Below, piece after piece: positions 14,279 to 39,918 of a stretch of DNA of 64,000 bases. Position numbers and translations under genes: made by a program. The stretch is from Bacteroidota bacterium (GTDB lineage: Bacteria > Bacteroidota > Bacteroidia > M30B66), in contig JAIXYK010000032.1 of assembly GCA_027490225.1 (NCBI GenBank), positions 32,418-96,417 of the forward strand, read 5' to 3'. Position 1 is the stretch's first letter. Every line of letters begins with the position of its first letter. The notes beneath the pieces are model-generated. The model did no database searches. It saw nothing but the letters and a program-made list of their open reading frames with translations, and was not told the DNA's origin.

Positions 14279-14950
14279 ATGCAAAAAACTCATGTTATAA
14301 TTGTAGCAGGAGGAAGCGGAAGCAGAATGGGTGCAGAAATCCCTAAACAATTTCTGCATTTCGCTGGGAAACCAATTTTGTTGCATACCATTGAAAAGTT
14401 TTATGCTACAAATGCAGCATACAATTTAATTCTTGTACTACCTGAATCGCATTTCGGCGCTTGGGAAGAGATTATTCAGCAATTTAATTGTACCATTCCT
14501 CATCAATTAGTGAAAGGAGGAAATACGCGTTTCCATTCAGTAAAAAATGGATTAGCATTAGTAAATGATGGATTTGTTGCGGTTCATGATGCCGTACGCC
14601 CATTGGTTACAAGCAATACAATTTTAAATACACTTGAAGCTGCATTTATCCACGGGGCAGCAATTCCTGTAATTGAAAGCACTGATTCGGTAAGAATACT
14701 GTCAGACAATGGTTCGGTTCCCCTCACAAGGTCTTTGTTAAGAAATGTACAAACTCCTCAATGTTTTGATACCAGCATTCTTAAACAAGCAATGCAGCAA
14801 GAATTTAATCAGGAGTTTACAGATTGTGCAAGTGTTGTCCAGAAAGCGGGTTTTCCTATTTTTTTAAGTGAAGGGAATATTGAAAACATTAAAATTACTA
14901 CTCCTTTGGATTTAAAGATTGCTGAATGTATTCGCACTCAGTTTGATTAA
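14279..14950 (+). CDS. ispD: 2-C-methyl-D-erythritol 4-phosphate cytidylyltransferase
   Basis: N-terminal motif VIIVAGGSGSRMG...PKQF and IspD length and fold motifs. Confidence 0.9.
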   Translation: MQKTHVIIVAGGSGSRMGAEIPKQFLHFAGKPILLHTIEKFYATNAAYNLILVLPESHFGAWEEIIQQFNCTIPHQLVKGGNTRFHSVKNGLALVNDGFVAVHDAVRPLVTSNTILNTLEAAFIHGAAIPVIESTDSVRILSDNGSVPLTRSLLRNVQTPQCFDTSILKQAMQQEFNQEFTDCASVVQKAGFPIFLSEGNIENIKITTPLDLKIAECIRTQFD

Positions 14951-21776: not shown

Positions 21777-23106
21777 AGTTGGCTAGAATTTCATTTTCAA
21801 CTTCCTGAGAATCCCAAATTTCTTCAATGTTGGGTTTCTTCATAATCGATTGCATGATTCGTTCTTGCTTATCGCCAGCAACCAGTGCATCATTATAAGG
21901 AATATGGCTAAAAGTTACCATCGAATATAAAGGTGTCCAAAATTGTGGATATGCTTTGCTAAACTTGGCTTCTATTTTCTTTTGCAATAAAAAGGATGGT
22001 TCCGCAACTCTGTCGCGCATTTCAATAAAATTTCTTAAAGCCAATTCTGCAATAGCGTCTGCATTTTCTTTCCTGCTTTTTTCATAATTGCGCAAAAGTA
22101 AATCCCAGTCTTCATGTTGTGCATCATGAAGTTCACTAAAAATACTACAATCCTCAAAACCGCAATTCATTCCTTGCCCGTAAAATGGAACGATTGCGTG
22201 GGCGGCATCTCCAATCAACATAGCACTACTTTTCCAAGTCCAAGGGAAACATTTTACGATTACCATTCCTGCAGCAGGATTAGTTTTATACTCTTCTCTA
22301 AAATGAGGCATCATTGCCAAGGCATCTGAAAAATGCTCTCCAAAGAAGGTTTCTGCCTTCTCAATTGTATCTAAACTATCAAACGACAGTGCACCTGATT
22401 TTGGAAAAAACAAAGTACAAGTAAAACTTCCATCAATATTTGGAAGGGCTATGAGCATAAAATCTTTACGGGGCCAAATATGTAATGCATTTACTTCCAG
22501 CCTATGGCTTCCATCTTCATTAGGAGGAATGCTCAATTCTTTATAAGCGTAATCAATGTAATACTGAGAATAATTAAACCAAGGTGTTTTTTGCATCGCA
22601 TCTCTCACCTCAGAATAAGCCCCATCGGTTCCCACTAATAAATCTCCTTTTACAGAAATTTTTTCATTCCCAAATTGGAAATTGGCACTTGCTTCATCTA
22701 AGTTAACTCCTGTGCATTTGTGTTCGAAATGTATTTTAACACCTTCTTTTTCGGCCAAATCCATCAATTTGCAATTCAAATCTCCTCTTGAAACCGAATA
22801 AATAGATTGGCCATCATTTCCATATTGCTGAAAAGTTAGATTTCCTGCAACATCATGCATGATACGTCCATGCATTGGAATTCCTATTTTTCTAATTTCA
22901 TCATCAATTCCAACTCCCATTAAGCCTTTGAAACCTCTGTCAGAAAGTGCCAGGTTAATCGACCTTCCTGCGCTAATTGTTGCCTTGCGCATATCATTCC
23001 TGCGCTCAAAAACCTCCACTTTATAGCCTCTTTTTGCCATATAAATAGCATACAAAGAACCAACAAGTCCGGCTCCAACCACTGTTATCAAAGATTTTTC
23101 TGTCAT
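21769..23106 (-). CDS. kmo: kynurenine 3-monooxygenase (FAD-dependent)
   Basis: GxGxxG FAD-binding motif VVGAGLVGS; RSINLALS; HIWPRKDFMLIALPNIDGSFTCTLF matches the KMO core. Confidence 0.85.
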   Translation of the reverse strand: MTEKSLITVVGAGLVGSLYAIYMAKRGYKVEVFERRNDMRKATISAGRSINLALSDRGFKGLMGVGIDDEIRKIGIPMHGRIMHDVAGNLTFQQYGNDGQSIYSVSRGDLNCKLMDLAEKEGVKIHFEHKCTGVNLDEASANFQFGNEKISVKGDLLVGTDGAYSEVRDAMQKTPWFNYSQYYIDYAYKELSIPPNEDGSHRLEVNALHIWPRKDFMLIALPNIDGSFTCTLFFPKSGALSFDSLDTIEKAETFFGEHFSDALAMMPHFREEYKTNPAAGMVIVKCFPWTWKSSAMLIGDAAHAIVPFYGQGMNCGFEDCSIFSELHDAQHEDWDLLLRNYEKSRKENADAIAELALRNFIEMRDRVAEPSFLLQKKIEAKFSKAYPQFWTPLYSMVTFSHIPYNDALVAGDKQERIMQSIMKKPNIEEIWDSQEVENEILANFI

Positions 23107-23110
23107 TATA

Positions 23111-24379
23111 TTATTTTTTAAATGAATGAATGATACTTACAAATGTGTAAACATCATTAAATGAATTGTACAAAGGTACAGGAGCTATCCTTATAACATT
23201 TGGCTCTCTCCAATCAGCAATAACTCCATTAAGAGATAAATGTTCAAAAACTTCTTTCCCATTTTTGTGAAACAATAGTGATAACTGACAACCTCTTTGT
23301 TCAGGTGTTATAACAGTAAACAAATCTTTAAAATATTGCTCTTGCTGTAATTCCTCAAGTAAACTAAATAAAAAACCAGTTAATTTTTTGCTTTTACTAA
23401 CAATTGCAGGCATTGTAGCAGAAGCAAATATTTCCAAGGATGCCCTGTGTGCTGCCATAGATAAAACAGGAGCATTGCTCATTTGCCAGCTTTCTGCAGT
23501 TGGAGTTGGTAAAAATGTATCTCCCATTTTAAATCTTGTGTTGAGTTGATGTCCCCACCAGCCAGCTAATTTAAATGTATCGGGATTTGAAGAGTGTTTC
23601 TCGTGTATAAAGATTCCAGCCACGCCACCTGGACCTGAATTTAAATATTTATAAGAACACCATGCTGCAAAATCTACCTTCCATTCATTTAGTTTTAACT
23701 CAATATTCCCAATGGCATGAGCCAGATCAAAACCTGCAATTGCGCCTACAGCATGTGCAGCTTTGGTTATTTTTTCCATATCGAACACTTGACCGCTGTA
23801 GTAATTTACTCCTCCAATCATCACCAAGGCCAATGCTTCCCCTTCTTCTGAAATTGCTTTCAAAACATCTTCCTCATCAATTATTTCACTTCCTTCTCTG
23901 GGAGCGATTATTCTCAATGATTTTTCAGGCGTACTGTTATGAAAAACTGTTTGACTTTGTAAAGCGTAAATGTCTGATGGGAAAGCCTTTGCTTCACAAA
24001 TTATCCGATGTCTTGTTAATGTTGGCTTGTAAAAAGTTGCCATTAAAATGTGCAAATTCACAGTAAGGGCATTCATTGCAACTACTTCAGAAGTTTTTGC
24101 ACCTGTAATATGGGCTAATGTTTCAGAAAATTGTTCATGGTATGTAAGCCAGGGAGAACGAGCGTGAACATGACCTTCTACACCTAAATTGGACCAGTCT
24201 TCTAATTCTTGCAATACAGATTCTTTTGTTCTTACTGGCTGTAAACCCAAAGAATTTCCACAAAGATAAATTGCCTTTTTATCATTAATCTTTGGAAAAA
24301 GGAAAGATTTACAATATTCTGAAAGTTCATCCTCGCTATCTAATTGCTTACTTGTATGCAGTGCTTTATCAAGATTCAT
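23111..24379 (-). CDS. kynU: kynureninase (PLP-dependent)
   Basis: The N-terminal region ...YLCGNSLGLQP... and the overall class-V aminotransferase architecture at the right length are typical of kynureninase. It is adjacent to kmo. Confidence 0.85.
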   Translation of the reverse strand: MNLDKALHTSKQLDSEDELSEYCKSFLFPKINDKKAIYLCGNSLGLQPVRTKESVLQELEDWSNLGVEGHVHARSPWLTYHEQFSETLAHITGAKTSEVVAMNALTVNLHILMATFYKPTLTRHRIICEAKAFPSDIYALQSQTVFHNSTPEKSLRIIAPREGSEIIDEEDVLKAISEEGEALALVMIGGVNYYSGQVFDMEKITKAAHAVGAIAGFDLAHAIGNIELKLNEWKVDFAAWCSYKYLNSGPGGVAGIFIHEKHSSNPDTFKLAGWWGHQLNTRFKMGDTFLPTPTAESWQMSNAPVLSMAAHRASLEIFASATMPAIVSKSKKLTGFLFSLLEELQQEQYFKDLFTVITPEQRGCQLSLLFHKNGKEVFEHLSLNGVIADWREPNVIRIAPVPLYNSFNDVYTFVSIIHSFKK

Positions 24380-24831
24380 ATGGTGTAGATTGCTAAAATT
24401 AGCGCCTTAAAAATTTGTTGCAATATGACGGCTTTTTTACTCATTCTGTTCGAATTTTCGCCAAATAATATTTTGAATTAAATGCTATTCAATTTTCTTC
24501 TCCAAATATAATTTCGAAAAGAATGGAATACTATGCATCTCTTTCAAAAGGAGTACTAAATTTACGACGATGAAAATTCAAACAATCGTCTATTCTGTTT
24601 GGCAAAACGAAAGATATAAGTGCAAACATTTAAAATTCAGACATTTATAATTTTTTTATATTTTTCTTTCAATTGTTTGTAAATCAATTTTTAAATGTAT
24701 CTTTAATCATTAAATTGCATGATTGAGAATATTTAAGGGCAATAATTTTTGATTTAGCACCTTTTTAAACAAAAGCTTAAACATTGCATCACATTAACAC
24801 GTTTTTTTTAATTAAAATATAATTTTTCAGT

Positions 24832-27109: not shown

Positions 27110-29725
27110 ATGAATAGATTTCGAATTTTCTGGATACTTATTGCGCTCTTGAGCTTCGGAAAAGCGAATGCCACTCATAATCGTGCAGGTGAAATTACTT
27201 ACAGGCATTTAGGTGGATTTCAATATGAAGCAACAATAATTACTTACACAAAAGCTGATAGTCCAGCAGACAGAAATGCTCTTGGCATTTCTTGGGGCGA
27301 TGGTGTTACAGATACAATTCCTAGAATTAACGGGAATGGAAATGGAGAAATCGTAGCCCCCGACATAAAGAAAAACATTTATGTTGGAGTTCACACTTAT
27401 CCTGCTCCAGCAATATATACCCTTAGTTTTGAGGATGCGAATAGAAATGGAGGTGTAGTCAATATTCCAAACTCAATAAACATTCCTTTCTTTGTTTCTA
27501 CACAGCTCATTATCAACCCATTTCTCGGTATAAACAATTCCGCTTTACTATTAAATCCACCGATTGACCAAGCCTGCCCCGGGCAAATATTTATCCATAA
27601 CCCTGGAGCTTTTGATCCTGATGGAGATAGTATATCATATCGACTTACCCAATGTTTAGGTGAAGATGGACTTTCTATTCCTGGTTTCGCACAGCCTGTT
27701 GGCAGTAATTCATTTTCATTAAATCCAATTACAGGAGACTTAATTTGGGATACACCAAATAATGGAAGTATTGGTGAATACAACGTTGCATTTGTTGTTG
27801 AGGAATGGAGAAATGGAATTTTAATTGGTTTTGTTACCCGTGATATGCAGATAACTGTTTCTCCATGCACAAATCAACCGCCTGCTTTTCTAGAACTTCC
27901 TGATTTATGTGTTGATGCAGGAACAGTGATTCAATTTGATGTAACTGCAACTGATGCTGATTTTCCTGTTCAACAAATTACTTTGAGTGCAACTGGTGGC
28001 CCTTTCCAATTCGATGCACCATTTAATGCAGAATTTGCCGCTGAAACTGGAAATAGTAACGTTAGTCAAACATTTACTTGGGCAACAGATTGCTCACACG
28101 TAAAAAAAGAACCACACTTATTTAGTTTTCGAGTTGTAGATAATGGAAACCCAAATCTGTCTGATTATGAAACTGTGCAGATTAAGGTTGTTGCTCAGGC
28201 TCCTGCGCCATTAATTGTAAGTTCTCAAACCAATGGTATATTATTAAATTGGACTTTAAGCCCTTGCCCACAGGCTTTAGGATATGCCATCTATAGGAAA
28301 AGTGATTTCTTCGGTTTTGTTCCAAATGCATGTGAAACAGGTGTTCCAGCATATACAGGCTATTCTTTAATAGACACAATTCTTGGTATTAATACGCTTT
28401 CTTATTTTGATAATAATAATGGATTGGGTTTGCTTCCTGGAAATAACTATTGCTATATGGTGACTGCACTTTTTGGCAATGGGGCCGAGAGTTATGCTAC
28501 TAACGAAGCTTGTACTGAATTAAAAAACACACTTCCCATTATCACAAATGTTAGTGTAAGGGAAACCGCAACTGAAAATGGGTCAATTTTCGTGGCATGG
28601 TCAAAACCTACCCAACTCGATACAATTCAGTGGCCTGGTCCATTTAGATACATTATCGAAAGAAAACAAAACAATAACTTCGTTGCTGTTGATTCATTAA
28701 ATTCTTTGAATGATACTACCTACATAGATTCTTCAATATTTCTTAATACCCAAAATCAGAATTACAGGTACAGAATTGCATTAAAAGCCATTGAAAACAA
28801 TGTTCCCATACTGCTAGGAAACAGCCAAGAAGCCACATCTGTATTCTTAAGCACCTTTGGAGTCTCTAATGGAGTAGAACTTTCTTGGAACTATACTGTT
28901 CCTTGGCAAAACGACTCTTTTATTGTTTATAGAAGGTTGAACGGAGCCGTCGAATTTGATAGTATTGGCATCACAAAATTCAAAAAATTTAAAGACCTTA
29001 ACCTTGCTAATGGAATACCTGTTTGCTATAAAGTAAAATCAAAAGGTGCTTATTCTGGAAGCGGAACGATTTCCCCTATAATCAACTTATCTCAAATAAG
29101 TTGCGCTACTCCGGTAGATAAAATACCGCCATGCAAACCAATATTAACAATACAGTCTTCCTGCGATTCTCTTTTAAATATTCTAAACTGGACATTTCCT
29201 TTTGATACTTGTTCGAAGGACATTTCAAAAGTTAATATTTACTATACAACTTCTTTAAATTCGCCACTGCAATTATTAGAAAGTATAACAGGAAACAATG
29301 TCTTTACTTTTCCCCACCAACCTGCTTTTGGTGTAGCTGGCTGTTATTCAGTAACTGCAATAGATTCATTTTTAAATGAAAGCACTTTTGATAGCGTTTG
29401 CGTTGATAATTGTCCTCAGTATGAATTGTCTAATGTCTTCTCTCCAAACGGTGACGGGCTTAATGACTTTTTTAAACCTTATCCATATAAATTTATAGAA
29501 GATATATCCTTAACAATATTTAATAGATGGGGAACCAAAGTTTTTTCTACAAACAATAAAGATGTAAACTGGTCGGGAATAGATGCTCAAACTGGTAAAC
29601 TAGTTACAGATGGAATCTATTTTTATATTTGCACTGTAAATGAACAAAGGCTGGAAGGCATTGTTCCTAGGAATATAAAAGGAACTGTAACAATTTTAGA
29701 CAGCAGAGCCTCACAAAACCAATAA
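27110..29725 (+). CDS. secreted T9SS cargo with Ig/cadherin-like and FN3-like modules and a C-terminal type-B CTD
   Basis: Signal peptide, then internal YxYR..N..G FN3-like repeats, then the C-terminal motif FSPNGDGLNDFF...FNRWGTKVF...W.G...G..V.DGIYFYI of the type-B T9SS sorting domain. Confidence 0.85.
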   Translation: MNRFRIFWILIALLSFGKANATHNRAGEITYRHLGGFQYEATIITYTKADSPADRNALGISWGDGVTDTIPRINGNGNGEIVAPDIKKNIYVGVHTYPAPAIYTLSFEDANRNGGVVNIPNSINIPFFVSTQLIINPFLGINNSALLLNPPIDQACPGQIFIHNPGAFDPDGDSISYRLTQCLGEDGLSIPGFAQPVGSNSFSLNPITGDLIWDTPNNGSIGEYNVAFVVEEWRNGILIGFVTRDMQITVSPCTNQPPAFLELPDLCVDAGTVIQFDVTATDADFPVQQITLSATGGPFQFDAPFNAEFAAETGNSNVSQTFTWATDCSHVKKEPHLFSFRVVDNGNPNLSDYETVQIKVVAQAPAPLIVSSQTNGILLNWTLSPCPQALGYAIYRKSDFFGFVPNACETGVPAYTGYSLIDTILGINTLSYFDNNNGLGLLPGNNYCYMVTALFGNGAESYATNEACTELKNTLPIITNVSVRETATENGSIFVAWSKPTQLDTIQWPGPFRYIIERKQNNNFVAVDSLNSLNDTTYIDSSIFLNTQNQNYRYRIALKAIENNVPILLGNSQEATSVFLSTFGVSNGVELSWNYTVPWQNDSFIVYRRLNGAVEFDSIGITKFKKFKDLNLANGIPVCYKVKSKGAYSGSGTISPIINLSQISCATPVDKIPPCKPILTIQSSCDSLLNILNWTFPFDTCSKDISKVNIYYTTSLNSPLQLLESITGNNVFTFPHQPAFGVAGCYSVTAIDSFLNESTFDSVCVDNCPQYELSNVFSPNGDGLNDFFKPYPYKFIEDISLTIFNRWGTKVFSTNNKDVNWSGIDAQTGKLVTDGIYFYICTVNEQRLEGIVPRNIKGTVTILDSRASQNQ

Positions 29726-29728
29726 TAA

Positions 29729-30325
29729 ATGTTTACAGGTATAATAGAGAGTTTGGGGCAAGTTTTATCAATAAATAAAAACCTGCAAAATGTAGATTTT
29801 TGGATCAGTGCCCCATTTTCGAATGAATTAAAAGTGGACCAAAGTCTCGCTCATAATGGAGTTTGCCTAACAGTTGTTGAAATTGATGGCGGTTCTTATA
29901 AAGTAACTGCAATAGATGAGACATTACAAAAATCAAATTTGGGAAATCTTCAAATAAACGATTTTGTGAATCTTGAGAGATGTATGGTTTTTAATGGCCG
30001 GATTGATGGGCATTTAGTACAAGGCCATGTTGATACCACAGCAAAAGTAACGCATATAAATGATGAGCAGGGAAGTTGGAGAATAGGTTTTGAATATGCT
30101 TCAAATACAAATCATATAACTGTAGAAAAAGGTTCAATATGTGTAAATGGAGTAAGCCTAACAGTTGTTAACTCTTCTATCAATTCATTTGAAGTAGCAA
30201 TTATTCCTTATACCTGGGAAAACACAACATTTAGATTTCTTAAAGTAAATGAAAAGGTAAACCTAGAATTCGATATCTTAGGAAAATATGTAGCTCGAAT
30301 TACAAGCTTACAAAATGTAAAATAA
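29729..30325 (+). CDS. ribE: riboflavin synthase alpha subunit
   Basis: MFTGIIESLGQV... and the duplicated lumazine-binding half-domains, colinear with E. coli RibC/RibE. Confidence 0.9.
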   Translation: MFTGIIESLGQVLSINKNLQNVDFWISAPFSNELKVDQSLAHNGVCLTVVEIDGGSYKVTAIDETLQKSNLGNLQINDFVNLERCMVFNGRIDGHLVQGHVDTTAKVTHINDEQGSWRIGFEYASNTNHITVEKGSICVNGVSLTVVNSSINSFEVAIIPYTWENTTFRFLKVNEKVNLEFDILGKYVARITSLQNVK

Positions 30326-30403
30326 AATTTCTATTTTCAAATCATTTAGCTTTTTTTAAACAAAGAAAAAGTTTAGTCGTTAAATGTTTAAATTAGTATC
30401 GAC

Positions 30404-31348
30404 GTGGATTATCTATTAGCTAAAGATTCGGTTTCAGGAGCAAACGCAACTTTCAATAAAGCCAAGTACTCAATAAAAGATTTAGAGAGACTTTCGGGCA
30501 TAAAAGCTCATACAATAAGGATTTGGGAACAACGCTATAACCTGCTTTCTCCCGTAAGAACTGATACTAACATTAGACTTTATACTGATGTTGAATTGAA
30601 GCAACTATTAAACATTGCTTCTTTGATAAAAGTTGGTGGTAAAATTTCGCATCTTAGTAAATTAACCAATGCCGAAATAGCCGAAAAAATAAATCTAACG
30701 CACGAGAAGCCGACAAATGAAGATGTTTATTTAAATTCTCAAGCAGATAATTTAGTTATCGCTATGGTGGATTTGAATGACCAACTTTTTGAATCGACCA
30801 TTAGCAATGCAAGCAAAAAATTCGGCTTTGAGAAAACCATGATTCATGTAATCATTCCTTTTTTAAGCAAAGTTGGAATTATGTGGAGAACAGGCGAAGT
30901 TGGCGTAATTCAGGAACATTTCATTAGCAATCTCATTCGTAGAAAAATGATTGTGGCTATAGATGAAGTGAGCAATTTACAAAACACATCCGACGACCTT
31001 TACTTGCTCTTTTTACCAGAAGGTGAATTGCATGAATTAGGACTTCTGTTTTCAAATTACCTTATAAAAAGCAAGGGCAAAAGAATTATTTACTTAGGAC
31101 AAACCGTTCCGTTTGATGATGTAATTAAGTTTTGCGAGCAATTCAATCCAAAATATTTACTTACCTTTTTTACTGCAGCATACAGTGCAGAAACCATCGA
31201 AAACTACATTTTAGATTTATTAAAGAACACAAATGAAACAACTTTATTAATTGCAGGAAATCAAATAAAAGAACGACCGGTGCTTGAAATGGATAGAGTA
31301 ATATCTTTAACCTCCCCTCAGGATCTTATTGCTGTGTTAGAAAAATAA
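30404..31348 (+). CDS. MerR-family light-sensing regulator with a C-terminal cobalamin-binding domain (LitR/CarH-like)
   Basis: The N-terminal MerR HTH is YSIKDLERLSGIKAHTIRIWEQRYNLL. The C-terminal B12-binding signature is E-x-H-x-x-G (EGELHELGLLF...RIIYLG). Confidence 0.75.
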   Translation: MDYLLAKDSVSGANATFNKAKYSIKDLERLSGIKAHTIRIWEQRYNLLSPVRTDTNIRLYTDVELKQLLNIASLIKVGGKISHLSKLTNAEIAEKINLTHEKPTNEDVYLNSQADNLVIAMVDLNDQLFESTISNASKKFGFEKTMIHVIIPFLSKVGIMWRTGEVGVIQEHFISNLIRRKMIVAIDEVSNLQNTSDDLYLLFLPEGELHELGLLFSNYLIKSKGKRIIYLGQTVPFDDVIKFCEQFNPKYLLTFFTAAYSAETIENYILDLLKNTNETTLLIAGNQIKERPVLEMDRVISLTSPQDLIAVLEK

Positions 31349-31401
31349 ATTATCTGCACTTTACTTATCTAAAATAAATTTTTTCTTAATAAATACAGTA
31401 T

Positions 31402-31440
31402 TGGCGCTACTTTCCAAGTGGCGCCATTTTTATTATTGAA
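31402..31440 (+). terminator. rho-independent terminator after the LitR-like gene
   Basis: GGCGCTACTT-tcc-AAGTGGCGCC stem (one mismatch) followed by ATTTTTATT. Confidence 0.65.
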
Positions 31441-31452
31441 ATTATGAAAATA

Positions 31453-31501
31453 ATTTTTGTTTAATGTTAAAATATATTTGTTAAACAAATTTTTGTTTAA
31501 T
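31453..31501 (+). promoter_or_regulatory. promoter/operator region with a 13-nt direct repeat ATTTTTGTTTAAT x2 flanking a TATATTTG -7 element
   Basis: The repeat copies lie at ~31453-31465 and ~31489-31501. TATATTTG at ~31474-31481 fits the Bacteroidota -7 consensus, and a TTTG ~20 nt upstream fits -33. Confidence 0.45.
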
Positions 31502-31531
31502 ACATTTGTCGAAACATTAAACATCACACCT

Positions 31532-32041
31532 ATGTCAGCTCAAGATTTTCAAACGGAAGTAATTAGTCTTAGTAAACCACTAAAGTATTTTGCACTTAAT
31601 TTGACTTCAAATGATGAAGATGCAAAAGACTTGTTGCAAGAAACATTGTTTAAAGCAATAAGTAACCGACATAGGTTTATCGAAAAAACAAACTTAAAAG
31701 CTTGGTGCTACACCATAATGAAGAATATCTTCATAAATAACTACCGCAGAACAGTAAAAGCAAATACAATAGTAGATAATACTAAAGATTTATATTTTCT
31801 TAATATACCTCAACAATCAAGTTCATTTGCCCCAGAATCTAAATATTCTGAACGTGAAATATTAAAGAAAGTAGATAGTCTTGAAAATGAATACAAAATA
31901 CCGTTTACAATGTATTTCGATGGGTATAAATACAAAGAAATTGCGGATTATTTAGATTTACCAATCGGTACAGTAAAAAGCAGAATATTTCTTGCTAGAA
32001 AGCAATTGATGACCATGTTAAAAGGATATTCGGCGGCTTAG
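31532..32041 (+). CDS. ECF-type RNA polymerase sigma factor (LitS/CarQ-like position)
   Basis: Sigma-70 region-2-like (LLQETLFKAI...AWCYTIMKNIFINNYRR) and region-4-like (EIADYLDLPIGTVKSRIFLARKQL) segments are present. I prefer the start at MSAQDF, because the track start at 31457 lies inside the predicted promoter. Confidence 0.75.
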   Translation: MSAQDFQTEVISLSKPLKYFALNLTSNDEDAKDLLQETLFKAISNRHRFIEKTNLKAWCYTIMKNIFINNYRRTVKANTIVDNTKDLYFLNIPQQSSSFAPESKYSEREILKKVDSLENEYKIPFTMYFDGYKYKEIADYLDLPIGTVKSRIFLARKQLMTMLKGYSAA

Positions 32042-32068
32042 CAGTAAGATTGAACTTTATGCTTATTT

Positions 32069-32938
32069 TTGCTGTTACAATATTCTATGTCATCTTCAAA
32101 TTCGCTAGACAGGTACAATTTAGTATGTTCAAAATGCAGCAAGCTAACAACTCAACAGTATAGCACCTCATTTACTCTCGGAATACGTTCTCTAGCTAAA
32201 GAATACCACAATCCTATCTATGCAATTTATGGTTTTGTGAGATTCGCAGATGAAATTGTTGACACTTTCGATAGAACTGATAAATCTGAATTACTCTCGA
32301 AATTCAAAGCAGACACCTACGAAGCAATTGAGAAAAAAATTAGTTTAAATCCAATCTTACATAGTTTTCAAGAAGTGGTGAATAAATATCACATTGAAAA
32401 TGAACTAATTGAAACATTTCTACAAAGCATGGAAATGGATTTAAATGAAAAAGGCTATTCCCAATCTTTATACGAAAAATATATTCTGGGCTCAGCAGAA
32501 GTGGTTGGCTTAATGTGCTTAAGGGTTTTTTGTAATGGCAACAAAGAACAATTTGAAAGCCTAAAGTTTCCTGCTATGCGTTTGGGTTCCGCATTTCAAA
32601 AAATCAATTTTCTTAGAGACCTAAAAGATGATTACAACGAACTTGGAAGAACATATTTTCCAGGTTTAGAAATGAGCGAGTTTAACGATAAATCAAAGTC
32701 TGACATAGAAAAAGACATAGAAACCGATTTTAAAGATGGTTATTTAGGTATTAAGTCTTTACCAAAAGGCGCAAGGCTGGGTGTATATGTAGCTTACGTT
32801 TACTATTACGCACTTTTCAAGAAAATTAAAAGAACCTCCCCACAAATTGTCTTGAATGAAAGAGTCAGAATTCCGAACTTTTACAAGTATTTTCTAATTC
32901 TTCGTTCATTGTTTAAACATTCTTTGAACCTTATATAA
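32069..32938 (+). CDS. crtB: phytoene synthase
   Basis: Both squalene/phytoene synthase signatures are present: YGFVRFADEIVDTFD and GSAFQKINFLRDLKDD. Confidence 0.85.
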   Translation: MLLQYSMSSSNSLDRYNLVCSKCSKLTTQQYSTSFTLGIRSLAKEYHNPIYAIYGFVRFADEIVDTFDRTDKSELLSKFKADTYEAIEKKISLNPILHSFQEVVNKYHIENELIETFLQSMEMDLNEKGYSQSLYEKYILGSAEVVGLMCLRVFCNGNKEQFESLKFPAMRLGSAFQKINFLRDLKDDYNELGRTYFPGLEMSEFNDKSKSDIEKDIETDFKDGYLGIKSLPKGARLGVYVAYVYYYALFKKIKRTSPQIVLNERVRIPNFYKYFLILRSLFKHSLNLI

Positions 32939-32974
32939 ACAATTTAATTGTAAATCAGTTTAGTATAGATAATT

Positions 32975-33826
32975 ATGGATACTTTAAACTTATCGGTTAC
33001 AATTGATAACAACTCGGGATTTTGCTTTGGAGTAGTTTATGCCATAGAAATGGCAGAAGATGTATTAGATGAAAGAGGTTATTTGTACTGTTTAGGAGAT
33101 ATTGTTCACAATGATGAAGAAGTAAATAGGCTAAAAGCAAAAGGTTTAAGAATTATAGACCATGAAACTTTTGCAACACTCAACAATGAGCATGTTTTAA
33201 TCCGTGCACATGGAGAACCGCCCTCCACATACGAAACAGCCATTAAAAATAATATCAACCTGATAGATGCAACTTGTCCTGTTGTATTAAAATTGCAAAA
33301 TAGAATCAGAGGCTCTTACGATAAAAAAGAAACAATCTTTCTTATGGGGAAGAAAGGACATGCCGAAGTAACTGGACTAATGGGGCAAATAAACAATGAA
33401 GGAATTGTGTTTTCGGATATTGAAGAACTAAACGATACTGAACTACCTGAAGAAATTACTTTGTATACACAAACTACTAAGAGTAAACAGAAGTTCAAAG
33501 AAACCAAAGAAGCACTTCAAGCTAAAGGTATCAAGGTAAATGCCCATGATACAATTTGCAGTCAAGTAAGCGACCGCGACATTGAGCTCAGGACTTTTGC
33601 ACGTTCTTATGATAAAATATTATTTGTCGGAGGAACAAAATCTTCCAACGGACGTGTTTTGTATAACGTTTGTAAAGAGCAGAATCCGAATTCCTTTTTC
33701 GTAAGTAATTTAAATGAGGTTCAAAAAGAATGGTTTCAAAAGAATGAAACAGTTGGTATTTGTGGAGCTACAAGCACGCCTCTTTGGTTAATGCAAGATG
33801 TTCAGAAGGCGCTTTTGAGTTATTAA
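32975..33826 (+). CDS. ispH: 4-hydroxy-3-methylbut-2-enyl diphosphate reductase
   Basis: LytB/IspH family: ...GFCFGVVYAIEMA..., ...IVHNDEEV..., and the three conserved Cys in their expected spacing (C17, C101, ~C195). Confidence 0.9.
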   Translation: MDTLNLSVTIDNNSGFCFGVVYAIEMAEDVLDERGYLYCLGDIVHNDEEVNRLKAKGLRIIDHETFATLNNEHVLIRAHGEPPSTYETAIKNNINLIDATCPVVLKLQNRIRGSYDKKETIFLMGKKGHAEVTGLMGQINNEGIVFSDIEELNDTELPEEITLYTQTTKSKQKFKETKEALQAKGIKVNAHDTICSQVSDRDIELRTFARSYDKILFVGGTKSSNGRVLYNVCKEQNPNSFFVSNLNEVQKEWFQKNETVGICGATSTPLWLMQDVQKALLSY

Positions 33827-33828
33827 TG

Positions 33829-34272
33829 ATGGCTAAGATTAATATTAGCACCAGAATACTTAATGCCAATTACAATATTGTTTATGCTAAATTTGATAAG
33901 GCACTTTTTTTAAAATTAGCTCCTCCTTTTCCTAAAGTTACATTGCTTCAATTTGATGGTTGCATCAAAGGAGATTTTGTGAAGCTTCAACTAAATTTCC
34001 CATTATTTAAGCAAACCTGGGAATCTGAAATCATTGACAACGGCTCAGAAAAACAAAGTATTTGGTTTATAGATAAAGGCACAAAACTTCCTTTTTTTAT
34101 AAGTAAATGGCAACATCACCATCTTATTAAACAAGATGAAAATGATGTAGTAATTGTTGATTCAATTCAGTTTTACAGCCATAATTGGTTCTTAACTTTG
34201 TTGTTTTACCCAATTATTTATTTGCAATTTCTTTACAGAATTCCAATTTACAAAAGCTTAAACAAACCGTAA
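33829..34272 (+). CDS. hypothetical protein, possibly SRPBCC/Bet v1-like
   Basis: ~148 aa with alternating beta/alpha hydrophobic periodicity. I start it at MMAKINIS rather than at the track start, which overlaps ispH. Confidence 0.4.
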   Translation: MAKINISTRILNANYNIVYAKFDKALFLKLAPPFPKVTLLQFDGCIKGDFVKLQLNFPLFKQTWESEIIDNGSEKQSIWFIDKGTKLPFFISKWQHHHLIKQDENDVVIVDSIQFYSHNWFLTLLFYPIIYLQFLYRIPIYKSLNKP

Positions 34273-34275
34273 TAA

Positions 34276-34863
34276 TTACCAGATAATTTCAGCAACAGCA
34301 CAGGTTTCCCACTTTTTATGAGCATGAACACTCAATCCAATTTTATTATAAGTTGGGTCTAAAACAATGTTTCTGTGCCCAAGACTTGGAACGCCGTCAT
34401 CTAATAACCATTGCATAGCAACATCTTTTCCGCTTTGCATTCCATAAGAAATACATTCGGCAAAATTCTTTTTGGGGCAAAGCTTTCGTTGGTGACCTAC
34501 ACCTCCACTTTTGCCAGTTTCTTCAGAAAAACATTTTGCATTCTCGTATAAATCGCTGTCAAAGTTAAGTGCCTTCATGCTTTCTAGCGTTCCGAGCTTC
34601 TTCTTGAGTGACTTTAAATAAGTATTGCTTTTTTCAATTTTTGCATAACCAGCAGGTCCGCTATAATTTTCTACAACGAAAAGTAAAAATAACTTTGGAT
34701 AAAGCCTTGCAAGATTAACATACAATATGGCTTCCTTCTCTGTTTCAGTTAGATATGGTACAGATTGCGCGGTGTTTGCCTCTTTATACTGCTCTGCTGA
34801 GAAATCTTGCGCATGATTTAATTGATAAACATAAAGAAGCAAAATGGTCACATAAACTTTCAT
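34276..34863 (-). CDS. secreted CAP/SCP/PR-1-like domain protein
   Basis: Signal peptide; GHQRKLCPKK...GHRNIVLDPTYNKIGLSVHA resembles the CAP motifs GHYTQ(V/M)VW...VGCA. Confidence 0.5.
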   Translation of the reverse strand: MKVYVTILLLYVYQLNHAQDFSAEQYKEANTAQSVPYLTETEKEAILYVNLARLYPKLFLLFVVENYSGPAGYAKIEKSNTYLKSLKKKLGTLESMKALNFDSDLYENAKCFSEETGKSGGVGHQRKLCPKKNFAECISYGMQSGKDVAMQWLLDDGVPSLGHRNIVLDPTYNKIGLSVHAHKKWETCAVAEIIW

Positions 34864-34924
34864 TTACACAAAACGAAGCTCGCTTAAGCGAAGTATTAGT
34901 GCCTGAAATTTATTTCTGAATGAA

Positions 34925-37309
34925 TTAATGCTGGATAATTAGTTTTTGTGTTTCAGCAAATCCTTCCTTATTCAGAAGTTGAACAAAATAAATTCCATTG
35001 GACAAATCTGAAGTTTCAACATTTACAGAACCATTGCTTGAGTTAAATAATAAAATTAATTTCCCTGAAACATCTAATATTTTCCCTTTAAACTCGCCCG
35101 ATTTACAAGAAACTTGAAACACGCTATTACTCGGATTTGGAAAAATGTCAAAACCAGTTTCATTCATTTCTTCTAAACTCTCGGGTGTATTTTTTATACC
35201 ATACAATTGAACATCATCGATATAAATACCATCCAATTCTGAAAATTGATCTGAAACAAAATGATACCTTATTCTTATCTTTTCTCCAGCATATTGTTTC
35301 AAAGATATACTTTCGTTTCTCCATAACCGGGTTCTGTCTTCATAATTTGGCTCAGCATCAACTCCATCAAAATTCTCGTGGATTGAAGTGTATTCTGCGC
35401 ACAATTTCTCCCAGACTCCGTTTTCTCTTTTAATTTGAACGGATGCAATATCATAGTATTGCTCAGTGAACCACCAAACCCAGTAATCTAATCGAGCATC
35501 TATAAAATCAGTTAAATCAATCTCATTTTCAAATTCCATCGAACTTTCTTCATTAGAAAGGTAAGGCGAAAAAGGCGAATCTGTTAATGAAAATGGTGCA
35601 GAATGATATCTTTCTGATGTTGTGCTCCATAACTGAGTATTGGCTTCGCTCACCCAATTATTTCCATTTTCAATACTATCATTAATTAAGTAAATAGGTT
35701 GCCCAAAAATATGGGTAATTGTATCTCTCCAGAAATTCCCATTAACCTGCACCAACCAAACGTATTTAATGGTGTCTCCAGCTTGTAAACTTGGAGGTAA
35801 TGCATAAGAAACAGAATGGCCCGAAGTGTCAAATCTCGTAGGAGAATTTATAATTACAGGAGAAAAATCTGTAAATGAGATGTTGCTAATTCCAATTGCT
35901 TCAACTGTAAAGTTTCCTGATGTATTTCCAAGGGAAACAAATCTAAATGGCAAAGTCCCATTTGTTCCAGGTGGAATATAGTAAGGAGCGTCATCTATAA
36001 TTTCAGCATAACTAAGCGCAAGTTTTAATGTTTTTAGATTCATAAAAACTTCATTTGCACTGGCTGGAATTATTACTTCGGCTGGAGGCCAAAAACCATA
36101 AAACGGTTCTCCGAACTCAGGTGTAAAAGCAAAAACTGCAGGCTTTGTAGTTGTGTCTCCATACATCCAATCATCTGAACCGCCATTTCCGGTATAATAG
36201 ATTGTTTCGGGAACAGTGCCATAATAAAAGTGGTTTTCTGCGCACATTGCTTCTGAAAGATTTCGAAATGTAACAGAGTCTGGGCATTGAGCATTCTCTA
36301 AATTCCCATAAGGATATATTAAAACATTACTAAATGAGTGGTTATTAATAGCATAGATAAATTGGTGTTGTTCTGTAAATAATTTCATCAACCTTGTTTC
36401 TGGTTCAGAAAAAGGAGCAGTACCTCTATATGTTTGTTGATCTGCAAATGGAGAAGAACCAAAATCATCAAAACCCCAGAATTTTCCATAATTCCTATTC
36501 AAGTCAACTCCAAAAGAGCCGTCACCATTATTTCTTCTGTTTTTTCTCCACAAGCCACCTCCGCCTGGTTCTGATACTTCGTTATATACATAACCATCAG
36601 GATTTACACAGGGTACGATGTATAACTCTGTTTGATCTAAAATTTGTTTGATTTCTAAATCATTCTCGTAGTTTTCAAGAAGATACCAAGTAAAAAATAT
36701 CAATTGAGAAACAGATAATGGCTCACGAGAATGGTGCAAAGAACTCATCAAGACTTTTGGTTCATTCGGCTCATCTGAATTCGGATTATCAGAAACGCGA
36801 ACCCAATTTACAGTTCTATTTTCTAAGGTTAACAATGTATCTGAAATTGGGCTTAATTCCGAAATCAATTGCGGATATTGCTGATGCATTGCATTAAAAT
36901 TATCGAGAATTTCCTGATAACTGTAAAAACCTGATTGACTTCCTTCTTGAAAATTTACTGGTGTTTTTACCTTTTTTAATCCACATTCGTCTTGAATTGC
37001 CCTGCTTTTCTCAAAATCTCCTTTTTTATACAACGACCTGTAATAGCTGCTTACATCTTCAATTAAAATAGAAGTTTCAAAACCAGCATTTGCTATTTTA
37101 AGCAATTCATTTTCCGAAAAATCTGAGATAAAAGAATGACCTTGACGCAACATTCCATGGTCAGTTTCTATACCTAAAGCTGCAAGTTTTTGAATTGGTT
37201 CTTGTTTCAGAAATATCTCAGCTCTGTGATACTTTTCAACCTGAGCTGTTAAGATTGTTGCGCAACTTATTACAAAAAAAACTATTAAAACAGTCCGTTT
37301 CATTTCCAT
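34925..37309 (-). CDS. M14-family zinc carboxypeptidase with a C-terminal T9SS type-A sorting domain
   Basis: Signal peptide, the M14 Zn-binding motif HHSREP (HxxE) and a C-terminal ~80 aa ending ...GIYFVQLLNKEGFAETQKLIIQH, typical of Por_Secre_tail. Confidence 0.8.
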   Translation of the reverse strand: MEMKRTVLIVFFVISCATILTAQVEKYHRAEIFLKQEPIQKLAALGIETDHGMLRQGHSFISDFSENELLKIANAGFETSILIEDVSSYYRSLYKKGDFEKSRAIQDECGLKKVKTPVNFQEGSQSGFYSYQEILDNFNAMHQQYPQLISELSPISDTLLTLENRTVNWVRVSDNPNSDEPNEPKVLMSSLHHSREPLSVSQLIFFTWYLLENYENDLEIKQILDQTELYIVPCVNPDGYVYNEVSEPGGGGLWRKNRRNNGDGSFGVDLNRNYGKFWGFDDFGSSPFADQQTYRGTAPFSEPETRLMKLFTEQHQFIYAINNHSFSNVLIYPYGNLENAQCPDSVTFRNLSEAMCAENHFYYGTVPETIYYTGNGGSDDWMYGDTTTKPAVFAFTPEFGEPFYGFWPPAEVIIPASANEVFMNLKTLKLALSYAEIIDDAPYYIPPGTNGTLPFRFVSLGNTSGNFTVEAIGISNISFTDFSPVIINSPTRFDTSGHSVSYALPPSLQAGDTIKYVWLVQVNGNFWRDTITHIFGQPIYLINDSIENGNNWVSEANTQLWSTTSERYHSAPFSLTDSPFSPYLSNEESSMEFENEIDLTDFIDARLDYWVWWFTEQYYDIASVQIKRENGVWEKLCAEYTSIHENFDGVDAEPNYEDRTRLWRNESISLKQYAGEKIRIRYHFVSDQFSELDGIYIDDVQLYGIKNTPESLEEMNETGFDIFPNPSNSVFQVSCKSGEFKGKILDVSGKLILLFNSSNGSVNVETSDLSNGIYFVQLLNKEGFAETQKLIIQH

Positions 37310-38351: not shown

Positions 38352-38405
38352 TAGTTAATAATGAAAACAGTAAACGCTTAAAAATAAATTTTGTTCAATG
38401 CCTAT

Positions 38406-39479
38406 TTAAATTTCATTTTTTGTTACCCCGTCAATAAATTTTTGAACTTCATTCTTCTCTAAAAATCTAGAAATCAATCTTGGAAAGGCTTTGGTATTTG
38501 CATTTAACCAAGGTTCTTTTTCAAATGAATGTAGAACTTTATTTGAAAATTCATTCACCAAACCAATTGTAAAAGTTGCATAAATATGCTGGTGAGTTAG
38601 TATGTGTTTTGTTGGTTCAAATTCCCTTTTAATCAGAAAATGAAATGATTCCAAATTCAATTCTCCGCTAACCACATTAAAATCGTCTTTAATTAAAACA
38701 AACTCATAAAGGCTTTCCCAAATATCGTTCTTATCGCGCTTTCTAATTAAAAAATTTGCATTGATATCAAACACCAATAAATAATGTAAGTTTCTAATAC
38801 CGACTTTAACTTTCTTCTCTTTAATTGGAAGTTCCTTTACCAGTTTATTTTTGATGGCAAAACATGTTTCATTAAATATGCAAGCATCACAAAAGGGGTT
38901 TTGAGGTTTGCATACCATTGCTCCAAATTCCATCATTGCCTGATTGAATGTTCCTGGATTTTTTTTATCTAAAATTTCATCTGCAATTTTTTGAAATTCT
39001 TTCTTTCCGATTGTTGAATCTATTGGAGTTTTAATGCCAAAATATCTGGAAATGAAACGATAAACATTGCCATCAACAACCGCTTTGGGCTCGTTAAATG
39101 CAAAGCTAGCAATAGCTGCAGCAGTATAGGTTCCAACGCCTTTTAATAGCAGTATTTCATTATAATTATCTGGGAATTTGCCATCAAATTGTTGTACTAT
39201 TTGTTTGGCTGCGAAATGCAAATTCCTGGCTCTTGAGTAATAGCCCAAACCTTGCCAGGTGCGCATTACTAAATCTTCGGGAGCTGCTGCTAAAGACTGC
39301 ACATCAGGAAACAGTGTTACAAATTTTAAATAATACTCCATACCCTGATCAACCCTGGTTTGCTGTAGTATTATTTCAGACAACCAAATATGATATGGAT
39401 TAGAAGTATTCCTCCAGGGTAAATCTCGTTTATTGAGATTATACCAAGTTAATAGTGGGTGAATTATGGGGTGAATCAT
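38406..39479 (-). CDS. mutY: A/G-specific adenine DNA glycosylase
   Basis: HhH-GPD domain, a [4Fe-4S] cysteine cluster (C..C..C...C) and a C-terminal NUDIX-like domain. Confidence 0.85.
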   Translation of the reverse strand: MIHPIIHPLLTWYNLNKRDLPWRNTSNPYHIWLSEIILQQTRVDQGMEYYLKFVTLFPDVQSLAAAPEDLVMRTWQGLGYYSRARNLHFAAKQIVQQFDGKFPDNYNEILLLKGVGTYTAAAIASFAFNEPKAVVDGNVYRFISRYFGIKTPIDSTIGKKEFQKIADEILDKKNPGTFNQAMMEFGAMVCKPQNPFCDACIFNETCFAIKNKLVKELPIKEKKVKVGIRNLHYLLVFDINANFLIRKRDKNDIWESLYEFVLIKDDFNVVSGELNLESFHFLIKREFEPTKHILTHQHIYATFTIGLVNEFSNKVLHSFEKEPWLNANTKAFPRLISRFLEKNEVQKFIDGVTKNEI

Positions 39480-39549
39480 GCTAGATTAGGGAACAAGATT
39501 AGGAGAATAAAATTTTAAAAAAAACTTTTTCATAATTAATTAAAACAAG

Positions 39550-39557
39550 TATCTTTG
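39550..39557 (+). promoter_or_regulatory. -7 element TATCTTTG upstream of the hup gene
   Basis: TATCTTTGCAGCC fits TAnnTTTG and shares the TTTGCAGCC extension with the queA and lepA promoters. Confidence 0.4.
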
Positions 39558-39630
39558 CAGCCCGTTTTTAAGAAACGCTAACTTACACATTAACAAAAAA
39601 CTAAATCCAAACCAATAACAACCAATAACA

Positions 39631-39918
39631 ATGACTAAAGCTGAAATTGTAGCAGAAATCGCGGAAAAGACCGGAATTGAAAAAATAACAGTTCAAGCTT
39701 CTGTAGAAGCGTTCATGAAATCAGTAAAAACAAATTTGTCTCAAGGTAAAAATGTTTACTTACGCGGATTTGGTAGTTTCATAGTTAAAAAACGTGCTAC
39801 TAAAAAAGGTCGTAACATTTCAAAAAATACTACCATCATCATTCCTGAGCATTTCATTCCATCTTTTAAGCCTGCAAAAACATTCAGCGAAAAAGTTAAA
39901 AAGTCTGTGAAGGCATAA
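39631..39918 (+). CDS. hup: HU-family DNA-binding protein
   Basis: MTKAEIVAEIAEKTGI...GFGSF...; ~95-aa HU/IHF fold. Confidence 0.9.
   Translation: MTKAEIVAEIAEKTGIEKITVQASVEAFMKSVKTNLSQGKNVYLRGFGSFIVKKRATKKGRNISKNTTIIIPEHFIPSFKPAKTFSEKVKKSVKA

Follow-up and report, generated by a model that had tools for sequence, protein, structure and literature searches.

Gene content of the locus

The present analysis concerns a 64,000-nt stretch of DNA from an uncultured Bacteroidota bacterium (assembly GCA_027490225.1, contig JAIXYK010000032.1). This whole stretch is termed the window, and all coordinates refer to it. On its plus strand, ribE (29729-30325) is followed by a gene for a putative B12-dependent photoreceptor-regulator of the CarH/LitR type (carH), a sigma factor gene of the extracytoplasmic function (ECF) type, crtB, ispH and a 148-aa open reading frame (ORF) annotated as SRPBCC in source databases, after which convergent genes begin (Table 1). 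An earlier, sequence-only reading of the same DNA had described a MerR regulator, an ECF sigma factor, crtB and ispH on one strand with short gaps, and a terminator behind the regulator; the domain matches, the gaps and an 11-bp stem followed by a T-tract confirm this description. As detailed below, the module probably works as a light switch in which a CarH/LitR-type regulator is coupled to the ECF sigma factor.

The DNA of the window is AT-rich (GC content of about 31-37%), and several Logan metagenome assemblies, SRR16126835 among them, contain the sequence. The closest species representatives in GTDB are freshwater metagenome-assembled genomes labelled "Bacteroidia/Flavobacteriales", the regulators of which are only 55-58% identical to that of the window.

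Table 1. Features of the carH-sigma-crtB-ispH module, in order of position in the window
Feature	Position	Strand	Remarks
Candidate ECF-type promoter of carH	30358..30381	+	-35 AAAC 30358-30361, 17-nt spacer, -10 GTT 30379-30381; 23 nt before GTG
carH/litR, 314 aa	30404..31348	+	GTG start; MerR helix-turn-helix, four-helix-bundle B12 cap, putative Rossmann B12-binding domain
Intrinsic terminator of carH	31402..31436	+	Stem-loop 31402-31426, then T-tract
Predicted operator IR1, TGTTTAA-N16-TTAAACA	31458..31487		Right half overlaps -33 element TTTG 31477-31480
Predicted operator IR2, TGTTTAA-N16-TTAAACA	31494..31523		Encloses -7 box TACATTTG 31501-31508; predicted transcription start ~31513
ECF (group 4) sigma factor, 169 aa	31532..32041	+	First gene of predicted operon; Sigma70_r2, Sigma70_r4_2
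crtB, phytoene synthase family, 283 aa	32087..32938	+	SQS_PSY
Candidate ECF-type promoter of ispH, AAAC-N17-GTT	32937..32960	+	15 nt before ispH ATG
ispH (lytB), HMBPP reductase, 283 aa	32975..33826	+	LYTB; NF002187 equivalog
SRPBCC (helix-grip, Bet v 1/START-like) protein, 148 aa	33826..34272	+	Start codon overlaps ispH stop; predicted fold

Related loci and predicted operon structure

The window was compared with 80 Bacteroidota loci that carry a CarH homologue (81 loci when the window is counted), the ORFs of which were clustered. The sigma factor gene adjoins carH in 54 of the 80 related loci (55 of 81 with the window), and the order carH-sigma-(crtI)-crtB recurs in about half of them (~40 of 80). 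In the Cytophagales, the layout is (cruF or crtZ)-carH-sigma-crtI-crtB-(c7)-crtYcd-ispH-(crtZ or crtW), found in about 25 loci. Some Flavobacteriales display the order uvrC<-carH-sigma-crtI-crtB-idi-queD-folE, with a photolyase gene within or just beyond the cluster. The addition of idi, queD, folE, photolyase and uvrC genes to related clusters fits a light-protection regulon.

The window belongs to a clade which comprises the window itself and seven related loci (L007-L012 and L027), with the layout recQ-type IX secretion system (T9SS) gene-ribE-carH-sigma-crtB-ispH-SRPBCC. The carH-sigma-crtB-ispH order is kept in five GTDB representatives (L007-L010 and L027), four of which also have the SRPBCC gene, the contig of L008 stopping inside ispH. 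L012 retains carH-sigma-crtB up to the end of the locus, and the contig of L011 stops just past carH. Judged by this comparison of gene order, the arrangement is not a chance adjacency.

Neither in the window nor in any of the seven related loci does the cluster include crtI or the lycopene cyclase gene (crtYcd), and by the same comparison both have been lost from it in this clade. The sequence-only reading had remarked that crtI, crtY and crtZ are not in the window, which agrees with our tblastn searches: with queries taken from the related loci, no homologue of crtI, crtY/crtYcd, crtZ, cruF, crtW, idi or photolyase was detected in the 64 kb. The sole match was a generic FAD-fold similarity to a kynurenine-monooxygenase-like ORF. 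A 483-aa ORF (1417-2868) was considered as a crtI candidate and rejected, as it gave only a weak match and has no amine-oxidase domain. Since neither crtI nor a cyclase gene occurs in the cluster or the window, the module is not a self-sufficient carotenoid unit; if carotenoids are made, crtI and a lycopene cyclase gene must lie elsewhere.

The gaps between sigma and crtB, crtB and ispH, and ispH and the SRPBCC gene measure 45, 36 and -1 nt, respectively. Across the clade the intergenic gaps vary in length (26-59 nt for sigma-crtB) and are unconserved in sequence, and over 39 loci sigma and the crt gene that follows it are a median of about 20 nt apart. No terminator occurs between the sigma, crtB, ispH and SRPBCC genes, and no conserved sigmaA -7 box precedes crtB, ispH or the SRPBCC gene; upstream of ispH such a box is absent in 28 of 29 loci. 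Large sigma-crtI gaps were inspected as hiding places for a promoter and proved to be mostly artefacts of non-ATG crtI starts. Taken as they stand in the DNA, the four genes from sigma to the SRPBCC gene look like one operon. Given the short median gap and the lack of a conserved promoter, crtB (and crtI in the relatives) would be co-transcribed with the sigma gene and not driven by the sigma factor.

The CarH/LitR-type regulator

The N-terminal part of the regulator (residues 22-89) passes the Pfam cutoffs for MerR_1 (PF13411, 2.4e-14) and PF00376 (2.1e-09), and the B12-binding_2 domain (PF02607) is matched at 2.6e-08, with 34.4 bits versus a cutoff of 23. A phmmer search matched Thermus CarH (5c8d) at 9e-20. 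In the phmmer alignment, the W-x9-EH motif WRTGEVGVIQEH (residues 161-172) pairs with WHRGEIGVAEEH of 5c8d, and PEGELHELG pairs with PPGERHEIG. The latter segment contains the E-x-H-x-x-G signature in the form ELHELG (residues 208-213), which falls opposite the region of His177 in Thermus CarH. The sequence-only reading had relied on this C-terminal B12 signature; its Glu and His residues (E208 and H210), as well as W161, E171 and H172, are invariant in all 120 of the 120 Bacteroidota homologues compared. By these hallmarks the regulator is a class I (AdoB12) member of the CarH/LitR family, for which binding of adenosylcobalamin (AdoCbl) and photochemistry are predicted.

A regulator of this kind might also respond to B12 supply or redox state and not to light, as do some CarH/LitR relatives and PpaA/AerR-type proteins. 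Photochemistry is not demonstrable from sequence alone, and Bacteroidota are often B12 auxotrophs, both of which count in favour of such a sensor. The invariance of W-x9-EH, which forms the adenosyl cap in photoreceptor CarH, argues against it, as do the clusters of the relatives, which hold photolyase, uvrC and carotenoid genes, and the Rfam search, which at E <= 1 over positions 29500-35000 found no family, the cobalamin riboswitch included. We consider sensing of B12 or redox very improbable.

Within the clade, identity is 53-58% for CarH and 65-69% for CrtB versus 77-85% for sigma and 79-84% for IspH. Sigma and IspH are the far more conserved proteins, and apart from the residues for cofactor and DNA binding, which are invariant, the putative photoreceptor evolves fast.

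The terminator behind carH has six GC pairs in its 11-bp stem and ends in the tail TTTTTATTAT; an equivalent hairpin and T-tract are visible 3' of carH in L007, L012 and L027. On this evidence carH is predicted to be a transcription unit of its own, ended by a strong terminator. Upstream of carH there is a degenerate palindrome with two mismatches (TTTTCAA-N15-TTAAACA, 30334-30362) and a lone TGTTTAA (30385-30391) without a good partner, a pattern that is not conserved across the clade. CarH may exert weak autoregulation at 30334-30391.

The ECF sigma factor

The sigma factor matches Sigma70_r2 and Sigma70_r4_2 and scores above the cutoff of TIGR02937. The top sub-threshold family is SigH_actino (TIGR02947, 93.9 bits versus a cutoff of 251.55). 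The nearest characterised relatives are the actinobacterial SigH and SigR, and the best solved one is SigH of M. tuberculosis (PDB 5zx2, 2.3e-22). By these matches it is a generic group 4 (ECF) sigma factor, with membership established at the level of TIGR02937.

The true start is the ATG at 31532, which is conserved in the clade together with the block upstream of it. Two TTG starts (31457 and 31493) were rejected as spurious, the stretch between them and the ATG being conserved as regulatory DNA and not as protein. The module contains no anti-sigma-like ORF, crtB following directly on sigma; because no anti-sigma gene is adjacent, the sigma factor would be controlled mainly via its own synthesis.

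In two related loci (L013, positions 10062-11307, and L064), the CarH-linked sigma gene is tandemly duplicated. In L013, a palindrome of the type described below precedes each copy (10008-10037, and 10726-10756 with one mismatch).

A predicted operator over the sigma promoter

The spacer between carH and sigma contains two exact copies of the palindrome TGTTTAA-N16-TTAAACA (IR1 and IR2). They are the only exact copies in the 64 kb, for which 0.03 would be expected. The same spacer contains a promoter of the Bacteroidetes type (TTTG-N20-TAnnTTTG), in the form TTTG-N20-TACATTTG; the published sigmaA consensus of the Bacteroidetes places the -7 element at -12 to -5 (PMC9723704). In all seven of seven clade members, TAnnTTTG lies inside IR2 and precedes the sigma ATG by 30 to 32 nt. 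The promoter that the sequence-only reading had placed before sigma is of the Bacteroidetes type. A scan for E. coli-type promoters over positions 29500-35000 returned 28 matches versus 24.8 expected and, being at chance level, is uninformative.

In the 1.2 Mb of the 80 related loci, 104 palindromes were found when up to one mismatch was allowed: 74 stand before sigma, 8 before carH, 7 before crtZ-carH and 2 before ispH. The palindrome occurs upstream of sigma in 46 of the 54 loci that have the sigma gene, with two copies in 25 of them. In three loci that lack the sigma gene (L049, L079 and L082, with the order carH-crtI-crtB), it lies directly upstream of carH. Footprinted sites of class II LitR have the form TGTACA-N12-TGTACA and share the half-site core TnnACA with the window palindromes; they likewise number two, one located at -35 and the other downstream of the start of transcription (PMC9758184). 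We assign the palindromes to CarH because they lie upstream of sigma throughout the phylum, have dyad symmetry, are paired, cover the -33 and -7 elements and the transcription start, and contain the TnnACA core. From this we infer that the pair of palindromes is the CarH operator, serving for repression in the dark state.

Two Adhaeribacter loci show a one-mismatch palindrome, TGTTTAA-N16-TTTAGACA, directly upstream of ispH (L030, 14465-14494; L039, 14225-14254). It is followed by AAAC-N17-GTT, 29 nt before the start codon, and ispH in these loci thus appears to bear both control elements. Exact palindromes also occur outside the crt cluster (L069, 1339-1368 and 4034-4063; L062, 1180-1209), where they precede genes for DUF1295 and DUF218 proteins and for a T9SS-tailed DUF4397 protein; these genes may be further members of a CarH regulon in other lineages.

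An ECF-type promoter motif upstream of carH and ispH

Examination of the DNA upstream of carH reveals a second motif, [AG]AAC-N17/18-GTT, in 55 of the 81 loci, compared with a mean of 4.9 and a maximum of 11 in shuffled sequences. The control spacings N12, N14 and N20 occur before carH in 5, 9 and 3 loci, respectively, which is background. The peak at a spacing of 17 is sharp, and of the strict motif there are 15 forward and 0 reverse occurrences. In all eight clade members the motif stands at a fixed position before carH, with AAAC, GAAC or GGAAC as the -35 element, a kind of variation usual for the "AAC" boxes of ECF promoters and incompatible with a CarH half-site. Its geometry agrees with that of SigH/SigE-type promoters, GGAAC-N17-18-cGTT (PMC10012870).

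The distribution of the motif was enumerated by gene class. It precedes carH in 41 of 81 cases (2.3 expected), ispH in 12 of 28 (within 150 nt upstream; 0.5 expected, and including the clade locus L027), crtZ in 13 of 31 (0.7 expected), cruF in 3 of 14 (0.1 expected) and photolyase genes in 3 of 5 (0.1 expected). No enrichment was observed before sigma, crtYcd, crtI (1 of 41) or crtB (4 of 43, 1.1 expected), and unrelated genes are at background (22 of 587, 14.5 expected). The natural reading of these counts is that the sigma factor transcribes carH, ispH and peripheral photoprotection genes, among which carH itself (as feedback) and ispH are the best-supported predicted targets.

The counts also bear on a strict cascade from LitR via LitS to crt genes, in which CarH would control the sigma gene only, and the sigma factor would transcribe both crtB and ispH from promoters of their own. 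Such a cascade has a precedent in Streptomyces (PMC11519972), and the motif upstream of ispH, in the window and in 12 of 28 loci, is what it would predict. It is at odds, however, with the absence of enrichment before crtB and crtI, and with the short, unconserved and terminator-free spacer between sigma and crtB, at a median gap of about 20 nt. We regard a strict cascade as distinctly unlikely.

Several further patterns around the motif were considered. The element upstream of carH is not an everted pair of CarH half-sites: it is directional, its downstream part is GTTA and not TGTTTAA, and its -35 element varies. No clean pattern of mutual exclusion between the palindrome and the ECF-type motif was evident upstream of carH. 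Matches before ribE were discarded, as they fall within the C-terminal coding sequence of the T9SS gene that precedes ribE (27110-29725). This neighbour of carH encodes a large secreted protein, and its C-terminal part is so well conserved that it mimics an upstream motif.

Elsewhere in the window, AAAC-N17-GTT occurs on both strands at 39543-39567, in the divergent spacer between genes for a MutY-like glycosylase (38406-39479, minus strand) and HU (39631-39918, plus strand), and again before the SSB gene (38373-38396, minus strand). These sites may serve the sigma factor in the control of DNA repair, or may be due to chance, motif counts across the window being at chance level. A related sequence, TAAACA-N-CGTT (spacing 18, 24778-24803), precedes recQ by 28 nt; in the four other clade loci where the DNA before recQ could be scanned it is not conserved, and it is probably due to chance.

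The crtB, ispH and SRPBCC genes

The crtB product matches SQS_PSY (PF00494) at 8.6e-41 and contains FADEIVD and RDLKDD, the two Asp-rich motifs. Compared with the products of crtB genes that adjoin crtI in complete crt clusters, it shows 51-69% identity. The NCBIfam equivalog cutoffs for CrtB and HpnD are not reached, and HpnD is the top match; the CrtB models were built for other phyla.

These results leave room for another view, according to which the SQS_PSY enzyme of the clade is no longer carotenogenic, yielding phytoene only or a squalene-like product, and the module regulates general isoprenoid flux. The sub-cutoff HpnD match would fit, and so would the finding that crtI, crtYcd, crtZ and cruF occur neither in the cluster of any clade member nor in the 64-kb window. 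The identity to crtB genes beside crtI in complete clusters speaks for a carotenogenic enzyme, and the absence of crtI covers only 64 kb of the genome. Moreover, scattered crt genes are common, an example being the unlinked cyclase gene of flavobacterium GF1 (PMC6974559). A non-carotenogenic enzyme is in our judgement improbable.

The assignment of ispH is clear from LYTB (8.3e-86) and from two families whose cutoffs are exceeded (NF002187, 353.8 bits versus 276; TIGR00216, 232.2 versus 187.85). The small protein encoded behind it matches no Pfam family. Its AlphaFold2 (AF2) model has a pLDDT of 96.6 and the expected helix-grip order of beta-alpha-alpha-beta6-alpha. Foldseek returned 278 PDB matches at E <= 0.001, the best of which are Bet v 1-type, PYL and ZhuI proteins (probability 1.0; TM values for Bet v 1, PYL2 and ZhuI of 0.55-0.72). 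Model and matches agree with the SRPBCC-like small protein that the sequence-only reading had seen after ispH.

The linkage of this gene to ispH is confined to the window clade. A general linkage to crt genes or ispH was discarded, as the homologues in Flectobacillus and CP058647 lie in unrelated contexts. Nor is the gene the counterpart of the ~156-aa gene 3' of ispH in Cytophagales, which is crtZ and encodes a His-box protein; the copy of the latter in L017 gave no BLASTP match to the SRPBCC protein of the window.

Proposed mechanism

Taken together, the module is best read as a light switch that depends on B12 and couples a CarH/LitR-type regulator to an ECF sigma factor, a mechanism which, as a whole, we hold to be probable though by no means certain. 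In the dark, AdoCbl-bound CarH would occupy the two palindromes over the -33 and -7 elements and the transcription start of the sigmaA-type promoter, and the sigma-crtB-ispH-SRPBCC operon would be blocked. In the light, the cofactor would be photolysed, CarH would leave the DNA and the operon would be transcribed, such that phytoene synthase and the last enzyme of the methylerythritol phosphate (MEP) pathway would rise together. The newly made sigma factor would read [AG]AAC-N17-GTT promoters. At the carH promoter this would create a negative feedback and a fast return to dark repression, and at the ispH promoter an extra boost. Other sigma promoters probably lie before unlinked photoprotection genes, which in the relatives include crtZ, cruF and photolyase genes.

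A number of observations weigh against this mechanism. Regarding the regulator, PF02310, which the sequence-only reading had named as a check on the C-terminal half, is matched below threshold (E = 0.0037, 17.5 bits versus a cutoff of 32.1), and the CarH equivalog NF052513 (2.7e-27) stays at 95.7 bits versus a cutoff of 400. The protein is for this reason called a divergent member of its family. The PF02310 check thus gives a weak result, the other B12 evidence being strong, and several CarH homologues carry a precomputed PF02310 match. The recognition helix of CarH is invariant in all 81 sequences, a value which partly reflects retrieval bias since HTIRIWEQ was a retrieval pattern; given this invariance, covariation between helix and palindrome is uninformative. 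The operator is proposed from co-occurrence and dyad symmetry, and Thermus CarH is said, in work ascribed to Jost et al. in 2015, to bind direct repeats and not palindromes.

Other points concern the ECF-type motif and the output of the module. The motif is equally common before carH without an adjacent sigma gene (23 of 32) and with one (32 of 49), and these counts provide no link between it and this sigma factor in particular. In the window, the loose motif has 28 matches versus about 22 expected; as this is chance level, no further regulon members are called. In the window the -35 element reads TTAAAC, which is similar to a half-site of the operator; the variants GAAC and GGAAC in the clade argue against identity of the two. 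Carotenoid output is inferred only, crtI being absent from the 64-kb window. Finally, ispH is normally essential, and an operon that is off in the dark would require leaky ispH expression, an unseen promoter or a second copy of the gene.

The motifs might also have been misassigned: the palindromes could be bound by another regulator, and a different ECF sigma factor could recognise AAC-N17-GTT, the regulon of the adjacent sigma being unrelated. The occurrence of the ECF-type motif before carH irrespective of an adjacent sigma gene would be consistent with this, as would the second ECF sigma gene of the window (~56431-56844) and the lack of a local palindrome in most of the 26 carH loci that have no adjacent sigma gene. 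Misassignment is harder to reconcile with the position of 91 of the 104 palindromes before sigma, carH, crtZ-carH or ispH, and with the set of genes preceded by the ECF-type motif (carH, ispH, crtZ, cruF and photolyase), which is exactly the light cluster, all others being at background. In addition, sigma is the gene that most often adjoins carH. We think it unlikely that the motifs were misassigned, and retain the CarH-sigma light switch as the preferred interpretation.

Other genes of the window

The remaining genes of the window are of a housekeeping nature, with no additional carotenoid or light-related gene among them. Another MEP-pathway gene, ispD (14279-14950), is located 16 kb upstream between queA and purD and is unlinked to the light module. 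Genes of the kynurenine pathway, encoding tryptophan 2,3-dioxygenase, an FAD_binding_3 monooxygenase and kynureninase, lie near each other (16328-17287 and 21769-24379), interrupted by feoAB and an MFS transporter gene. A very large PKD-repeat surface protein (~1990 aa) is encoded at 2924-9231, and a separately called 158-aa CHU_C protein (8755-9231) overlaps its start in the longest ORFs. Behind the second ECF sigma factor (~137 aa) come a 413-aa protein that lacks any Pfam domain and a DUF2807/outer membrane protein (OMP) beta-barrel protein; the region 56431-59602 looks like a separate cell-surface module of the sigma/anti-sigma type.

Significance

Studies of B12-based CarH/LitR photoreceptors have dealt with Thermus, Myxococcus, Bacillus and Streptomyces. 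Among the heterotrophs exposed to light in lakes and oceans, the Bacteroidota are a major group. In this phylum, MerR/B12 regulators upstream of crt genes have been remarked on in Flavobacteriaceae (PMC6974559), and pigmentation of Chryseobacterium is light-induced by a mechanism that was not established (PMC7064467). In the full-text literature, which was incompletely covered, we came across only remarks on gene adjacency and saw neither a CarH operator of Bacteroidota, nor a CarH-ECF pairing, nor the promoter of the sigma factor described.

As a broader and much more tentative proposal, which we rate as rather doubtful, a CarH/sigma pair with negative feedback may act throughout the phylum and place IspH, carotenoid and photorepair genes under the control of light and external B12, the palindrome and the promoter motif defining a regulon not previously described. 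If true, B12-auxotrophic freshwater and marine Bacteroidota would depend on the B12 of their neighbours for isoprenoid flux and photoprotection. The window by itself is a modest finding, a reduced version of a widespread cluster, and its value lies mostly in the phylum-wide sites: together with its 80 relatives, the locus supplies a predicted operator pair and a candidate ECF-type promoter as concrete sites in the DNA, with a wiring unlike that of the Streptomyces model. Light regulation of pigmentation, isoprenoid supply and photorepair thereby becomes approachable in cultured relatives with the same layout, such as Pontibacter, Adhaeribacter, Imperialibacter or Algoriphagus, and the module may offer compact parts for optogenetic control in Bacteroidota. 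The predicted light control of ispH also raises the question of how an essential gene is expressed in the dark.

Comparison with known systems

Like the class I CarH/LitR proteins of Thermus thermophilus (5c8d), Myxococcus xanthus and Bacillus megaterium, the window regulator is built of a MerR helix-turn-helix, a four-helix bundle and, as predicted from its E-x-H-x-x-G motif, a Rossmann domain, is encoded beside carotenoid genes, and has its predicted operator over the promoter of a putatively light-induced unit. It is only about 30% identical over the B12 module, and the first gene that it would control is an ECF sigma factor gene. The operator of Thermus CarH reportedly consists of three 11-bp direct repeats, whereas the window has a pair of 30-bp palindromes.

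With respect to gene content, the cluster of Algoriphagus sp. KK10202C, said to have been described by Tao et al. in 2006, reportedly contains ispH in the same orientation inside the crt cluster. No regulator, sigma factor or DNA sites were found in the description of that cluster. Compared with it, the window clade is devoid of crtI, crtYcd and crtZ in its cluster, and has the SRPBCC gene after ispH.

The sequence-only reading had invoked both the carH/carQ logic of Myxococcus and the LitR-LitS logic of Streptomyces. In the CarQ-CarR-CarS system of Myxococcus, the sigma factor is accompanied by the membrane anti-sigma factor CarR and the antirepressor CarS. The anti-sigma part of this likeness does not hold, as the window module has no anti-sigma-like ORF and crtB directly follows sigma.

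The likeness to the LitR-LitS cascade of Streptomyces, a precedent for light-inducible carotenogenesis (PMC11519972), holds in part. The pairing of a B12 photoreceptor-regulator and an ECF sigma factor with carotenoid-isoprenoid genes is supported in silico. In both systems a repressor gates an ECF sigma factor with no evident anti-sigma factor, the sigma factor reads dedicated promoters and carH/litR is light-induced, all of which is predicted for the window. The wiring differs: the Streptomyces litR and litS genes are divergent and share a control region, whereas carH and sigma are in tandem with a terminator between them, and crtB lies on the sigma transcript. The promoter of sigma-LitS, GCATCCR-N15-CVGAAD, has no match on either strand of the window, for which [AG]AAC-N17-GTT is predicted. 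The target of LitS is crtE, whereas carH, ispH, crtZ, cruF and photolyase genes are the predicted targets of the window-type sigma factor.

The class II LitR proteins of Pseudomonas (PplR1/PmlR2; PMC9758184) also have two dyad sites per promoter, likewise at -35 and in the region from the transcription start to the start codon. Their half-site is TGTACA with a spacing of N12, compared to TAAACA and N16 in the window; they have no Rossmann B12 domain and receive the light signal from a LOV partner.

Lastly, the SigH/SigR/SigE group (ECF12-like; PMC10012870, PDB 5zx2) has a promoter geometry like that predicted for the window sigma factor, includes the closest solved structure, and has regulons that serve stress protection. 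SigH and SigR are paired with an adjacent ZAS anti-sigma factor that responds to thiol oxidation, whereas the window sigma factor is free of a ZAS gene and is predicted to be controlled at the level of transcription via the photoreceptor.

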